IMG/VR virus record: IMGVR_UViG_3300028797_000005
Span: 1 to 64,000 of that record
Source of the DNA: a virus
Taxonomy: Duplodnaviria; Caudoviricetes
Reading direction: 5' to 3' (one strand)
DNA length: 64,000 nucleotides
Part shown: one piece after another, positions 7,970-44,200 of the stretch
How positions within the stretch are numbered: the stretch's first letter is position 1
Layout: each line of letters opens with the position of its first letter
Made by a program: the position numbers and the translations under genes
Notes under the pieces: model-generated
Seen by the model: the letters and a program-made list of their open reading frames with translations, nothing else
Told to the model about the DNA's origin: nothing
Databases searched by the model: none

Positions 7970-8809
7970 CTACTCTTCATTATCTAAAAGATCTGCTAGT
8001 GATGCGGCTTTAGAGCGAACGCTCTGAGTTAAATGTACATGACCGAATAGCTCTTGGCCAGTTAATACTTCTATCATTCTTATTAAGCCGCTGTCTTTCT
8101 CGAATATTTCCTTATCTGCCTGTCTCCAGTCACCATTCATCCACAGCTGCGAGCCTTCCGCAAGGCGGCTGATAAGAACCTGACACAGTTTTGTAGTCAA
8201 GTTTTCTGCTTCAGATACATAAATAAGCGAGTGCTTAATATCTCTACCCCTCATGTATCCCAAATGCGCGACCTCAATTTGATTCTTGTCAATAAAATGC
8301 TGAAGCCCTTCCATGCCGCCAAGGTGGTCAGCAAGTGGCATAGCAAAGTTTATTATCTTATCTTGAACATCACCTGGCAAGGCGCCTAATTTCTCAACGC
8401 CTTTGACCTCAATATTATTTCTTACCCAAATAAGTTTATCGAAGTCACCTTTATCCAGCCTTGATATCGCTTCATTAATCATCAAGTAATCCTTGCCGGT
8501 TCCGAACGATCCAGACAATACCTTAATCTGACTCCGCTCATCCTGAAGCATATCAATAGCTAGTTCTTGCTCTAAGTTCTTTGGCTTAATAATACCTTGC
8601 CAATGATTTTCAATTGTTTTCCAAGTTAGTTTCTTTAATTCTTTTTCTTGATAAACATATTTATCAATTATTTTCCCATTTTTGTCAGCCAGTAGAACAT
8701 ATTGATTTTCATACATATGCGGCATCCCGAAATCGCCTTGATAGAAACGGGCAATTTCTTCATCAGTTAAAGTAAAAGTATAATAACCAAGATGTTGTGA
8801 GTCTAACAT
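7970..8809 (-). CDS. phoH: PhoH-family ATPase
   Basis: PKNLEQ, GSFGTGK, LGALPGD, YMRGR, EAENL, GDWRQAD. Confidence 0.9.
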   Translation of the reverse strand: MLDSQHLGYYTFTLTDEEIARFYQGDFGMPHMYENQYVLLADKNGKIIDKYVYQEKELKKLTWKTIENHWQGIIKPKNLEQELAIDMLQDERSQIKVLSGSFGTGKDYLMINEAISRLDKGDFDKLIWVRNNIEVKGVEKLGALPGDVQDKIINFAMPLADHLGGMEGLQHFIDKNQIEVAHLGYMRGRDIKHSLIYVSEAENLTTKLCQVLISRLAEGSQLWMNGDWRQADKEIFEKDSGLIRMIEVLTGQELFGHVHLTQSVRSKAASLADLLDNEE

Positions 8810-11169: not shown

Positions 11170-11964
11170 CTAAAAATCTAAACTTTTTGCAAATTTTGAA
11201 CTATTAAATTGTGATAAAGAATTCATTTCTTCAGTAACGAGATTGTATCTGCGCGCATTGTGTTCTGAATCTGGGTCAGTATCCATCATGTAGAGGTACC
11301 ATTCACGATCAATCAATTCTTCAAAGCGTTGCTCATCTTCAGGCTTAATTCCCATTTGCTGCTTGATGATACCCTTGAAAACTTCGATAGTCTTATCGTA
11401 ATCCTTCTGTTGTGATTTTGTTTGCTGATATGTCCCTCTAGTTCCACCAGAACCAAGATGAATCAAGAATGATGCTCTTGGAAATGCAAGTCGCTTATGT
11501 CCACAAAGGAATACAGCTGCAGCTGCGCTTGCCGCCATGTTCATATTAATTGTGTACACCGGCGTTTCACTCATTAGAATTGCATCACATATAACCATGC
11601 ACTCGTTTAAGTTGCCACCGGGTGAATTAATATAAATCTTAATCGGAATACGCTCCTCAATGGGCTTGCCCATATCCTCAATATTCCATGTGATGATATG
11701 ATTGGCGAACACTATTGCGTCTTCATCAATTTCATTCTCAAACCATAGAATCCTGCGCGCCTGACTTCTATAATAGCTGACCACACTTGGGTCAGGCAAA
11801 GTCAGATTGGCGCAATTATCGTATTGAGCTTGGTCTTGGACAATTTCTTGGATAATGTCCTTAATTTCACTCGTTTCGATCGTTTCTTCCTCAGGCTCAA
11901 GAACTACATCTTCTGCTTCTTCGTCTGTGAAATAGGGGATTGATTCAAATTGTGCCATTTTCAT
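11170..11964 (-). CDS. clpP: ClpP-family serine protease
   Basis: IKIYINSPGG, MAASAA (Ser), FLIH (His); start moved to RBS-preceded ATG because the longer ORF overlaps a tRNA. Confidence 0.85.
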   Translation of the reverse strand: MKMAQFESIPYFTDEEAEDVVLEPEEETIETSEIKDIIQEIVQDQAQYDNCANLTLPDPSVVSYYRSQARRILWFENEIDEDAIVFANHIITWNIEDMGKPIEERIPIKIYINSPGGNLNECMVICDAILMSETPVYTINMNMAASAAAAVFLCGHKRLAFPRASFLIHLGSGGTRGTYQQTKSQQKDYDKTIEVFKGIIKQQMGIKPEDEQRFEELIDREWYLYMMDTDPDSEHNARRYNLVTEEMNSLSQFNSSKFAKSLDF

Positions 11965-11985
11965 CTCCTTACTAAAGAAATAAGT

Positions 11986-12059
11986 TGGTGGCGGAGAAGG
12001 GAGTCGAACCCTCAATAAGAGCTTATGAGGCTCTTCTGTTACCTTTACATCACTCCGCG
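11986..12059 (-). tRNA. tRNA-Met(CAT), C1-C72 mismatch (initiator-like)
   Basis: cloverleaf, loop CTCATAA, encoded CCA. Confidence 0.8.
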
Positions 12060-12187
12060 TCATCTCAACGCCCAGCTTATCGGACTGGGCATGGCGGCAG
12101 ACAGATATGCTGCATAAACAGCCCGTGGCCACACCGCTGGTTATATTAATGTCTACCAGAAAAGACAAAGGCGTGTGTGGGGTGCGA

Positions 12188-14432: not shown

Positions 14433-14508
14433 TGGTGGACCTGACAGAGTACGATTCCGCAACCTCCCGCGTGCAAGGCGGGCGCTCTCCCAGTTGAGCT
14501 ACAGGCCC
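14433..14508 (-). tRNA. tRNA-Ala(TGC)
   Basis: G3-U70, loop CTTGCAC, CCA. Confidence 0.9.
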
Positions 14509-19415: not shown

Positions 19416-19745
19416 TATAAAAATATCCTTTCTTAAAAATGTTCGGGCGTGCAGTTTCAATCACGCGCATCTCGGTTGGATTCAACGACTCGTAACTGGG
19501 GTAGCTTACGCGGATTTGTGTCTAGCATATAGCTTCTGTCCGTCCACCGCCGCCCTCTGTGGTGTCTCCCCACTGCTTTCCAACTTATGAGCTTTATTTT
19601 CTTCACGGCTTTTAATGCTTGCCTACCGAACCTAAATTAGCGAGGAAGAGTTGCGGATGGGTCGTCGGCCTCTTGCTACGGGTCTCTTTTAATACCTAAA
19701 TAGGATACCAACTCGCTAAAATAGTTTATTGTCTGTTTCCAGACA

Positions 19746-20150
19746 TGGTGCGGATAGTCGGAGTCGAACCGACACTCCCTAAGGGGAAACGGATTTTCTT
19801 ACTACTCCATGTTACCATGGCCGCAATTGCATTGTAGTCTGGACTATACCTTCACCTTATTAAGTGATACAAGGAATTAGTATCATTATCACGCTATCCT
19901 TTATTCAAGTCTTACGCTACCTTTATGACTTAACTTAGGTGTGTGCCATCTAGTCTCTACACATTTATAAATAGGTTATTGTTCCACTATCAACTACTTG
20001 CAGGGTCCTCTTACCCAAGCCTATTTAACTTAGCTCGGTATTGTCCTTTAAGGAGTTTCACCGAATTTGACACAATTCATTAAAGAGTTTCCAACTTTAA
20101 TGCTCAATTTTACATAAGTCCGTCGCTTCTGCCTATTTAGCCATATCCGC
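19746..20150 (-). tRNA. tRNA-Leu(TAA), split by group I intron (exons 20116-20150 and 19746-19797)
   Basis: joined exons give ACGGA-CTTAAAA-TCCGT with long variable arm. Confidence 0.88.
19798..20115 (-). mobile_element. ORF-less group I intron (trnL-UAA type)
   Basis: GGACTT^...TTGAGC guide, AAATTCGGTGAAAC, GTAGAGACT..ATAGTCC, terminal G before AAAATCC. Confidence 0.88.
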
Positions 20151-20256
20151 ATAATGCAGGCACAACCCTGCAAGCAAGGAATATTCCTTGGAGTTCCCCG
20201 ACTTAACCTATCAGGTGGTGGGTCGCTGCAGCGACACAGGGATTAAATTTTTGCTA

Positions 20257-21603: not shown

Positions 21604-21680
21604 TGGGTTGGTCGACAAGACTTGAACTTGCACCTTCTTGAGCCACAATCAAGCGCTCTACCAATTAAGCTACGACCAAC
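21604..21680 (-). tRNA. tRNA-His(GTG)
   Basis: G-1:C73 8-bp acceptor, CCA. Confidence 0.9.
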
Positions 21681-21755
21681 TGGTACCCGTGAGAGTAGTC
21701 GAAACTCCATTTACCGCTTAGAAGGCGGGTGCTCTTTCCGTTGAGCTACACGGGC
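21681..21755 (-). tRNA. tRNA-Arg(TCT), second divergent copy
   Basis: loop CTTCTAA, CCA. Confidence 0.85.
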
Positions 21756-21760
21756 AAATA

Positions 21761-21834
21761 TGGAGCGGCTAAGGGGTAACGATCCCCTTGCTTCACGTTG
21801 GCAACGTGATGTGTTTCCTTTATACCATAGCCGC
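21761..21834 (-). tRNA. tRNA-Gly(GCC)
   Basis: cloverleaf, U73, CCA. Confidence 0.85.
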
Positions 21835-21837
21835 ATC

Positions 21838-22023
21838 TTATTCAATAACTTGAGTATAAGTAATTTTTTCTCCTGTATCTCTATTGACAAAGTAAAGTTT
21901 TTGGAATTTTCCTTCAAAAATTTGTTGCGCTTCTTCGCTGGAAATGTAATATCCTATTTCATTTTTTTCCAAATCATGTCTAATAAGTTCTAAAGTTAAA
22001 TTTTCAGCATCAATTTTTTCCAT
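21838..22023 (-). CDS. hypothetical protein inserted between tRNAs
   Basis: ORF track, RBS AAGGAG. Confidence 0.7.
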   Translation of the reverse strand: MEKIDAENLTLELIRHDLEKNEIGYYISSEEAQQIFEGKFQKLYFVNRDTGEKITYTQVIE

Positions 22024-22044
22024 GTATTAACTCCTTAAAAAGAA

Positions 22045-22121
22045 TGGCACGGGCCGAGGGATTTGAACCCATCATCTTACGGTTTTGGGGACCGCCATTT
22101 TACCAATTAAACTAGACCCGC
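22045..22121 (-). tRNA. tRNA-Trp(CCA), C33
   Basis: loop CCCCAAA, G73, CCA. Confidence 0.85.
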
Positions 22122-22124
22122 ATA

Positions 22125-22217
22125 TGGCGCGGACGGTGGGATTTGAACCCACGCATCGGATTAAACCGATCTAACGCTTTAGCAGAGCGCCCTCTTTAGC
22201 CACTTGAGTACATCCGC
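22125..22217 (-). tRNA. tRNA-Ser(GCT)
   Basis: cloverleaf, long variable arm, CCA. Confidence 0.9.
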
Positions 22218-22218
22218 A

Positions 22219-22296
22219 TGGAGAGCAGTACAGGATTCGAACCTGTGAATTACTTGTTTTGCAAACAAGCCCAATCGACCACTCTGGCAACTGCCC
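22219..22296 (-). tRNA. tRNA-Cys(GCA)
   Basis: cloverleaf, U73, CCA. Confidence 0.88.
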
Positions 22297-22299
22297 ATA

Positions 22300-22381
22300 T
22301 GGTGGACCATGCGGGATTCGAACCCGCGTCTTCAGCAGTCCGCTTTGGGTTTAAGCTGAATCGAACGCCCATCGATGGCCC
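22300..22381 (-). ncRNA. mini-tmRNA-like RNA: tRNA-like domain only
   Basis: GGGCCAT..TTCGA-TTCAGC/GCTGAA-GAC-GCGGG-TTCGAAT-CCCGC-ATGGTCC-ACCA; G3-U70; no D stem, no anticodon, no tag ORF. Confidence 0.75.
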
Positions 22382-22404
22382 ATAAAAAGGTGATTGCTCA
22401 CCTT

Positions 22405-22569
22405 TTAATAATTTTCTTCTTCAATTTCATCTATTGCAATTAACAGCTCATCTGAAATATCACATAAACAACGATAACAGTAAGTGCCTACACTAGTTTC
22501 TCTAATCTCATTACCAGCATATATCTGACCACATTTCTCACAACGGATTCTGTCTTTATCGGGTGTCAA
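22405..22569 (-). CDS. small zinc-finger protein (54 aa, TTG start)
   Basis: read manually; GGAGG RBS; CEKC...CYRC. Confidence 0.6.
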   Translation of the reverse strand: MTPDKDRIRCEKCGQIYAGNEIRETSVGTYCYRCLCDISDELLIAIDEIEEENY

Positions 22570-22655: not shown

Positions 22656-22716
22656 GATTTACTCCTTACTCATTTTCTTAATTTATTATATATCATTTTT
22701 TAAAAAAATTCAAATT

Positions 22717-43476: not shown

Positions 43477-43589
43477 CTATATGTTAAGAGGTCATAATAA
43501 AGGGGGTGACCTCATAGTGGGCAGTATGATAAGGAGGAAACTGCCCCTTATTCAACCCACTAAGGTAGGGTTGCACCAGAAAGGTTTAG

Positions 43590-44200
43590 TACGTATCATT
43601 GGGGCTTCCCCCTACAACCAATCAAAACTTGATTTAATCAATCACGGTGGAGATAAGTCTGAGCAGAAGGGAGCTACCCTCAAGCTTCTTACCCCGGTCT
43701 CTCGACCTAGTACACCGACAGGATTGGAACCTGCTACTTTCACCCGCTTTCAGAAACCTTCATGTTGTTTAAACATACAACTTTTATCTTGTATGTTGCG
43801 GCTGTTGGGCTACTCGTACCTTCCTTAGTGTCATAGCCGGATTTCACGGCTTCTCCGCAAATTCGATTCTTTGGTATTCCCTTAGGGGCCTTACTTGGTT
43901 ACCAGTCAAGCGGCATAAGGGTTATTCTCCACAGGAGCGTCTATTACTCGAACCACTTCGGAAGTATTTTAATCTTATTAAGTTGGTGCGCTGTTACTAT
44001 ACTTTGAGGTTTGACTCTCTTCAGGACTAAAGGCTTATTCACCTAATCCAGCATCTCACTTAAAGAACTATCGTTCTAAAAGGATTAGCACATAGCCACC
44101 CCGGCAGGTTGCGCCTTCTACACCGGGATAATGATACGGGAATTTTAGTTCAGCCGAAGCCTTAACAGCTGCGCCACGGGAAGGCAATTCCATGCAGCCA
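43590..44200 (-). ncRNA. ROOL-like large ornate ncRNA
   Basis: no credible ORF; segments TAATAGACGCTCCTGTGGAGAATAACC, CGAATTTG, AAGGTACGAGTAGCCCAA, CTGAAAGCGGGTGAAA..AGGTTCCAATCCT, GTAAG..GGTAGCTCC..GCTCAGACTTATC, GTGATTGA occur in the order I recall for ROOL; long-range helix CGTATCATT/AATGATACG; ends approximate. Confidence 0.75.

Follow-up and report, generated by a model that had tools for sequence, protein, structure and literature searches.

The gene described here is an 82-nt RNA gene on the minus strand of a phage genome. It lies within a window of 64,000 nucleotides (the whole stretch analysed, positions 1 to 64,000 of IMG/VR record IMGVR_UViG_3300028797_000005) that is part of a virus record of 123,246 bp, complete and with direct repeats at its ends. 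Trans-translation is the main bacterial pathway of ribosome rescue and protein tagging, and is an antibiotic target. The gene has the layout of a tmRNA pared down to its tRNA-like domain (TLD), here called a mini-tmRNA, and its parts are as follows.

22300–22381, minus strand: whole mini-tmRNA gene (TLD-only tmRNA), 82 nt; matched end to end by the Rfam tmRNA model RF00023, and at 63.2 bits by the family model R2
22375–22381, minus strand: 5′ strand of the acceptor stem, GGGCCAU, with G3 at 22379; seven of seven pairs with 22304–22310
22361–22374, minus strand: stemless D-loop analogue, 14 nt, ending in UUCGA (CGAUGGGCGUUCGA); aligned to GGaUUCGA of the tmRNA model
22355–22360, minus strand: 5′ strand of helix 2a, UUCAGC; 6 bp with 22331–22336
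22337–22354, minus strand: 18-nt loop in place of the pseudoknots and tag frame, with the core AAAnCCrAAGyG
22331–22336, minus strand: 3′ strand of helix 2a, GCUGAA; covariation in family and lineage
22328–22330, minus strand: GAC linker 5′ of the T arm; aligned to GGAC of the tmRNA model
22311–22327, minus strand: T arm, GCGGG-UUCGAAU-CCCGC; by alignment to the tmRNA model
22304–22310, minus strand: 3′ strand of the acceptor stem, AUGGUCC, with U70 at 22306; by sequence and covariation
22300–22303, minus strand: discriminator A73 and encoded CCA; by sequence, and constant in five alleles of the lineage

Inspection of the sequence gives a 7-bp acceptor stem with a G3-U70 wobble pair and A73, the identity elements recognized by AlaRS. 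No D stem could be drawn on inspection of the fold, and the D-loop analogue aligns to positions 8–20 of RF00023. Pseudoknots, resume codon and tag frame are all absent, just 18 nt separating the two strands of helix 2a; ARAGORN detected no tmRNA tag in the element, and a loop of this length is too short to hold a tag frame. An earlier sequence-only reading of the minus strand agrees with ours letter for letter, and the TLD features that it had named (G3-U70 with A73, a stemless D region running to TTCGA, helix 2a and GAC) are all present. Within the loop, a motif of UUAAA, a short hairpin and AYU is common to the window element and three other loci (L021, L067 and L074), the last three letters being ACU in the window and AUU in L021. 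When the sequence is folded alone to minimum free energy (z −1.8), its D region pairs with the T arm; this is not the conserved structure, and the fold was set aside because covariation supports the other one.

The surroundings of the gene, again on the minus strand, are these.

22685–22713, minus strand: promoter-like site TTGAAT-17-TATAAT, matching the consensus at 10 of 12 positions in a scan; a putative promoter for the small ORFs and the RNA array
22405–22569, minus strand: small ORF of 54 aa with a CxxC...CxxC arrangement and an acidic tail, directly upstream and 23 nt from the mini-tmRNA
22385–22406, minus strand: hairpin with a 9-bp stem, located between the 54-aa ORF and the mini-tmRNA; terminator-like score on the plus strand
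21604–22296, minus strand: downstream tRNA array of Cys, Ser, Trp, (a 61-aa ORF), Gly, Arg and His, by ARAGORN

With tRNA-Cys 3 nt downstream of it, the mini-tmRNA opens a run of seven minus-strand RNA genes, in keeping with its earlier placement as the first RNA of a tRNA run. Neither Pfam nor PHROG gave a match to the 54-aa ORF. Read on the minus strand, the hairpin carries its U run inside the stem, and it may act as a leaky terminator or protect a 3′ end after cleavage by RNase P. The promoter-like site and the hairpin, both identified by consensus matching only, point to a possible single transcription unit of the RNA array and the two small ORFs.

The phage appears to come from a bovine gut metagenome, and its host is probably a Firmicute. 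Its lysin and helicase most resemble proteins of [Clostridium] innocuum phages, which is a weak hint of a possible host. Searches of IMG/VR for close relatives by a 589-aa tail-fibre-like protein and by the helicase each returned one distant locus. The sequence-only reading had also associated the RNA with a ClpP of the phage's own, and one gene bears on this.

11170–12168, minus strand: ClpP-domain protein of 332 aa, the domain at residues 172–293; best PHROG, head maturation protease

The ClpP domain is thus present as described, but the link to tag-dependent proteolysis does not hold: the best matches of the protein are to head maturation protease families, so that it most likely belongs to that type and lends no support to such a link. 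The gene adjoins a PhoH-like gene (7970–8809), with no obvious capsid module there.

Assignment of the RNA to the tmRNA class rests on covariance-model scores. In an Rfam search with 4227 families, mt-tmRNA (RF02544) among them, in which overlapping lower-scoring clan members are not shown, the element was matched by RF00023 from end to end (model positions 1–374) with 23.2 bits (E 5.5e-8). Its 5′ and 3′ ends map to positions 1–27 and 340–374, the 312 positions in the middle being reduced to 18 nt; in a search of the whole genome the score was 31.8 bits. Both values lie under the RF00023 gathering score of 47 bits, so that by Rfam's rule the element is no called tmRNA, a shortfall that is to be expected since it lacks 312 of the 374 model positions. 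At relaxed thresholds the tRNA model was dropped at this site as the weaker clan member against tmRNA. At the Rfam gathering score, which is 29 bits for tRNA (RF00005), 27 of the window's 29 other ARAGORN tRNAs were recognized as tRNA and the mini-tmRNA was not. A match to Y RNA-like (YrlA) RNA, which scored 19 bits where the gathering score is 69, was rejected.

Two models built from the mini-tmRNAs themselves also set the element apart from tRNAs. With R2, made from 32 tag-less mini-tmRNAs with the window sequence left out, the element's 63.2 bits (E 4e-13) compare with 30.8 bits for the highest-scoring true tRNA of the window. With R1, made from 19 sequences, the family scored 57–90 bits and tRNAs 37 at most, the window element having 72.1 and the RNA of mycobacteriophage DS6A, discussed below, 65.7. 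Scores with RF00023 elsewhere were 52–77 bits for most relatives and 52–75 for L021, L074 and L067, with DS6A at 43.2, also under 47. On this evidence 22300–22381 is the tRNA-like domain of a tmRNA with no mRNA-like domain, as had been proposed, and it is a rather divergent member of the family, with acceptor strand GGGCCAU and a U-A first pair in helix 2a. Standard tools mislabel or miss such RNAs: here ARAGORN calls a tRNA-Leu and Rfam stays under its threshold.

About 38 distinct tag-less mini-tmRNAs were collected, almost all on viral contigs. A first, narrow pattern scan returned only tmRNA 3′ ends and tRNAs. Scans for UUCGA placed 20–50 nt before GAC and a T arm found many sequences of the same layout, 75–90 nt long, in IMG/VR and few in bacterial assemblies. 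One such pattern matched 33 viral contigs, but in bacterial genomes (596 Gb, 185,579 species) only 13 places; by score, four of these 13 belong to the family, and each of the four lies on a MAG contig no longer than 50 kb. A pattern for the subfamily with the UUAAA...AYU loop gave four matches in IMG/VR and none in the bacterial genomes. By these match counts, in which the viral collection is of unstated size, the family is phage-enriched, and the window gene adds to the evidence that such RNAs make up a sizeable family of this kind. Six further pattern matches of 88–101 nt on bacterial MAG contigs (L144, L140, L143, L134, L136 and L135) scored only 38–52 bits with the family model; some have six of seven acceptor pairs, and they may stem from permuted genes or be reduced forms of another kind.

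The family's structure is held together by covariation. In an alignment of 32 members 99.6% of cells are paired, with compensatory changes at 11 of the 17 modelled pairs; in helix 2a such changes occur at all five modelled pairs, with 98.7% of cells paired. The pairs G1-C72, G2-C71 and G3-U70 are constant in all 32 members, and in all five alleles of the window's own lineage, while acceptor positions 4–7 covary. Constancy of U70 in 32 of 32 members is a real observation because position 70 was never fixed by the search patterns. The invariance of UUCGA, GAC, the T loop and ACCA in the wider family is uninformative because the patterns imposed them (ACCA in the first scan). These results suggest selection on the structure of the mini-tmRNA, and selection also appears to act on the elements needed for charging (retention of G3-U70, A73 and CCA).

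No general conserved partner gene emerged across 32 carrier loci, only small clusters in mutually related marine contigs and none in the window. One small protein family, of ~70–118 aa and with ..VRRxLP....GNHWGN in some members, recurs near TLD-only genes (L059, L062, L066 and L068, also L016, L046 and L092); the contigs are mutually related, the protein gene lies 12–97 nt upstream of the RNA in three of them, and it is absent from the window.

Cultured phages were searched in GenBank by BLAST with the element and a GC-rich family member, which returned 3′ halves only and, among the eight records inspected, no TLD-only gene. ARAGORN reads permuted tmRNAs in Pseudomonas phage PA_L9, Alcaligenes phage QDWS595 and Xanthomonas phage BUDD. 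By their paired acceptor ends, Nanosmite (confirmed by Rfam) and Phass-1 carry full-length tmRNAs. Kikimora and CcrRogue have tmRNA-type 3′ ends and are taken as permuted tmRNAs because there is no 5′ partner within the range of the mini-form; the match in Klebsiella DP is an odd tRNA. DS6A thus appears to be the only cultured TLD-only example that could be pointed to. In PA_L9, QDWS595 and BUDD (L114, L117 and L120) the permuted tmRNA is in two pieces and has a tag frame, where GenBank shows nothing or a hypothetical protein.

Variation particular to this case is found at a single locus in related bovine-gut phages. The 54-aa upstream ORF was matched exactly in at least 24 contigs of other samples, its sequence identity across contigs following by construction from the exact-match look-up. 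In all seven loci with DNA available a mini-tmRNA (57–68 bits with R2) lies 23 nt downstream of this ORF, and in these relatives (L158–L164) the order of tRNAs that follow is the same as in the window. The lineage contains five distinct mini-tmRNA sequences in four allele classes. Identity between loci is 95–99% over the 150 nt upstream, the ORF and the spacer, and 91–100% over the downstream tRNA-Cys; between allele classes of the mini-tmRNA itself it is 67–77%. All 17 modelled pairs are nevertheless intact in each of the five syntenic alleles, and 11 of the 17 show compensatory changes, including three of the five T-stem pairs; helix 2a is 100% paired. G1–G3, U70, A73, CCA and the loop core AAAnCCrAAGyG are unchanged while acceptor pairs 4–7 turn over, and the constant loop positions are A30–32, C34, C35, A37, A38, G39, G41 and A43. 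One allele, that of L158, has GAA in place of the GAC linker.

Beyond these loci, homologues in other bovine gut DNA contigs cover just positions 8–70 of the element at ~84% identity, and in one relative the mini-tmRNA is replaced by 71 unalignable letters. A possible resemblance between the loop core and the 5′ strand of helix 2 in E. coli tmRNA, where the Rfam consensus is a GAa bulge only, was considered and no claim is made of it. The nearby tRNA-Ser(gct) (22125–22217, minus strand) also falls into two allele classes across the window and L158–L164, with 67% identity between classes and 96–100% within them; in one relative it is replaced by 78 unalignable letters.

The mini-tmRNA locus is thus a sharp local hot spot of divergence with strictly kept structure, and its alleles turn over unusually fast within the phage lineage while preserving that structure. 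Either recombination between phages or rapid substitution could have produced it. It is conceivable, though we think it rather improbable, that an arms race underlies the pattern, the stems being swapped or re-evolved, with the AlaRS set and loop core kept, so as to match the SmpB or EF-Tu of different hosts or to escape a host factor; if this were true, hosts would have means directed specifically against phages that disturb ribosome rescue. The divergent alleles of this single locus provide a mutational map of features for charging, SmpB binding and inhibition, in which G1–G3/U70, A73, CCA, the D-loop analogue and the 11-nt loop core are kept.

The kind of RNA is not new, and the earlier suggestion of an undescribed system has to be withdrawn. 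A TLD-only tmRNA of Mycobacterium phage DS6A appears in a passage of Hudson, Lau and Williams (PMC4131195), whose tmRNA list has the entry ‘Mycobacterium phage DS6A (TLD only)’. According to the same passage, a DS6A-like molecule, chargeable or not, strongly inhibited E. coli tmRNA, perhaps through titration of SmpB (Mao et al. 2009, cited in PMC4131195). The 2025 tmRNA database paper (PMC11915505) repeats the DS6A inhibition in a passage citing Mao et al. 2009, and adds plastid tmRNAs of ~65 bp without a CDS. The DS6A entry is tmID 11587 (Phage__Mycobacterium.9) of the tmRNA Website, and we located the gene at JN698994 28478–28560, 83 nt between gp33 and gp34, unannotated. No broader description of phage TLD-only tmRNAs was found in the literature searched, and DS6A, one phage RNA that blocks trans-translation, is mostly mentioned there in passing. 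The window gene adds a divergent member to this known kind.

The two RNAs have much in common: both are phage-encoded (83 and 82 nt), with a G3-U70 acceptor, a stemless D region, a T arm, a helix 2a of 5–6 bp, and an A-rich strand with a short capped segment, and both fit the R1 covariance model. The DS6A gene, however, belongs to a GC-rich actinophage and stands alone between protein genes, does not encode CCA, has CAC as its linker in place of GAC and forms a loop hairpin CCG-CACG-CGG. The window gene is the first of a tRNA array, encodes CCA, has the acceptor strand GGGCCAU and has a loop without a clear stem. Standard tmRNA (SsrA, RF00023) shares G3-U70, A73, UUCGA, GAC and the T arm, but has four pseudoknots, a resume codon and a tag frame where the window gene has 18 nt. 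The tag-less organellar tmRNAs (jakobid mt-tmRNA and the ~65-bp plastid forms of Mallomonadaceae, PMC11915505) are likewise reduced to the tRNA-like domain and are thought to act with SmpB and without a tag; they are organelle genes with nucleus-encoded SmpB and their own ribosomes, whereas the window gene is viral and would act on its host. A tRNA-Ala resembles it in G3-U70, A73, T arm and CCA, but the window RNA has no D stem, 7-nt anticodon loop or anticodon and scores lower on the tRNA model than on that for tmRNA.

We propose that the mini-tmRNA probably interferes with the host's rescue-and-tag system. Neither SmpB nor a full-length tmRNA is encoded in the complete 123-kb phage genome, and neither Pth nor RF-1/ArfB domains are encoded by the phage, so that any activity would have to run through the AlaRS, SmpB and EF-Tu of the host. 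SmpB is absent from five other carrier phages too, and RF00023 found no full-length tmRNA in seven carrier records (two locus sets, in partial overlap with the set searched for SmpB). The two mechanisms first suggested, sequestration of SmpB and acceptance of stalled peptides without a tag, appear to be those that the evidence allows. The best explanation would be that the RNA is a charged, tag-less competitor of host tmRNA, to which we give a probability of about one half.

Such a competitor would be co-transcribed with the tRNA array, excised by host tRNA-processing enzymes, charged with alanine by host AlaRS through G3-U70 and A73, and bound by host SmpB. EF-Tu would then bring it, as a rival of host tmRNA, to ribosomes stalled on broken mRNAs, where it would receive the nascent chain; because it has neither a resume codon nor a tag frame, no degradation tag would be added. 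The net effect would be that tagging by host trans-translation is out-competed, and SmpB tied up, during infection. Repeated tag-less transfer of alanine could possibly leave short alanine tails on stalled chains, and any benefit to the phage is conjecture.

A charged molecule is favoured because the AlaRS identity set is strictly kept while the neighbouring acceptor pairs turn over. It is also favoured by work on engineered TLD fragments, which are the same minimal RNA as laboratory constructs, the window gene being natural and conserved. According to a passage in PMC3895274, peptidyl transfer to TLD-only tmRNA is blocked by kirromycin (Shimizu & Ueda 2006), and by implication the transfer takes place when the drug is absent.

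A real but clearly lesser possibility is that the RNA is purely a sponge, which would sequester host SmpB and shut down trans-translation with neither alanylation nor entry into the ribosome. Entry may be dispensable, given the passage in PMC4131195 on DS6A-like inhibition in E. coli, for which chargeability was not needed; and the D-loop analogue, helix 2a and the T arm, which make up the SmpB-binding tRNA-like domain, are all kept. Against this, G3-U70, A73 and CCA are constant both in the 32 family members (ACCA being imposed by the pattern in the first scan) and in the five fast-diverging alleles, and the AlaRS pair stays while its neighbours in the acceptor stem change freely. A sponge is disfavoured because it is hard to see why it would need the AlaRS identity pair.

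We know of no defence system that targets the tRNA-like domain of tmRNA. It is nonetheless conceivable, although quite unlikely, that the RNA acts on some other target, as a decoy for a defence that recognizes or cleaves tmRNA or tRNA-like RNAs or as a regulator working through its 18-nt loop. The allele hot spot, with 67–77% identity between flanks of 91–100%, is what an arms race would give, but recombination of alleles between phages explains it equally well. The loop core AAAnCCrAAGyG is kept in sequence and not as a clear stem, as this reading would allow, and predicted defence systems with SmpB-like domains have been described (PMC11090510).

Readings of the RNA as a tRNA or as a relic are jointly very improbable. 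That it is an ordinary, odd or decayed tRNA, either the tRNA-Leu(UAA) that ARAGORN calls (tRNA-Leu(taa)) or a degenerate tRNA-Ala, is hardly credible, even though it is located in a tRNA array and encodes CCA as its neighbours do. The ARAGORN cloverleaf has two mismatches in its five-position anticodon stem and a D stem of only 2–3 bp, and the other three allele classes of the lineage receive no ARAGORN call. Covariation backs helix 2a and not the anticodon stem; the Rfam tRNA model stays under its gathering score and loses to the tmRNA model. The phage already has a tRNA-Ala(UGC) (14433–14508) and an intron-split tRNA-Leu(UAA) (near 19750–20160). We consider the tRNA reading already largely refuted.

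Phages often integrate into tmRNA genes, carrying the 3′ ends along, and several matches of the first scan were such 3′ ends or full tmRNAs. That the element is a non-functional remnant of this kind, for example a fragment of a tmRNA gene retained as an attachment site, is least likely of all. It has both strands of the acceptor stem, and the covariation between them already contradicts this reading. Every relative examined has the gene in synteny and with its structure intact, and the element sits inside a tRNA operon of a genome with direct terminal repeats.

Two other RNA genes of the window deserve mention in their own right. The tRNA-Leu(UAA) at 19631–20160 (minus strand) appears to be split by a group I intron (Rfam, 19821–20125, 71.5 bits); removal of ~317 nt in silico restores a tRNA call with the anticodon loop one base off, the boundaries being approximate, and in the related loci L158–L160 an intron-less tRNA-Leu(taa) joins the equivalent of window positions 20115–20160 directly to that of 19631–19797. 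A full-length ROOL RNA (RF03087) lies at 43584–44151 on the minus strand, with 273 bits (E 1.9e-61).
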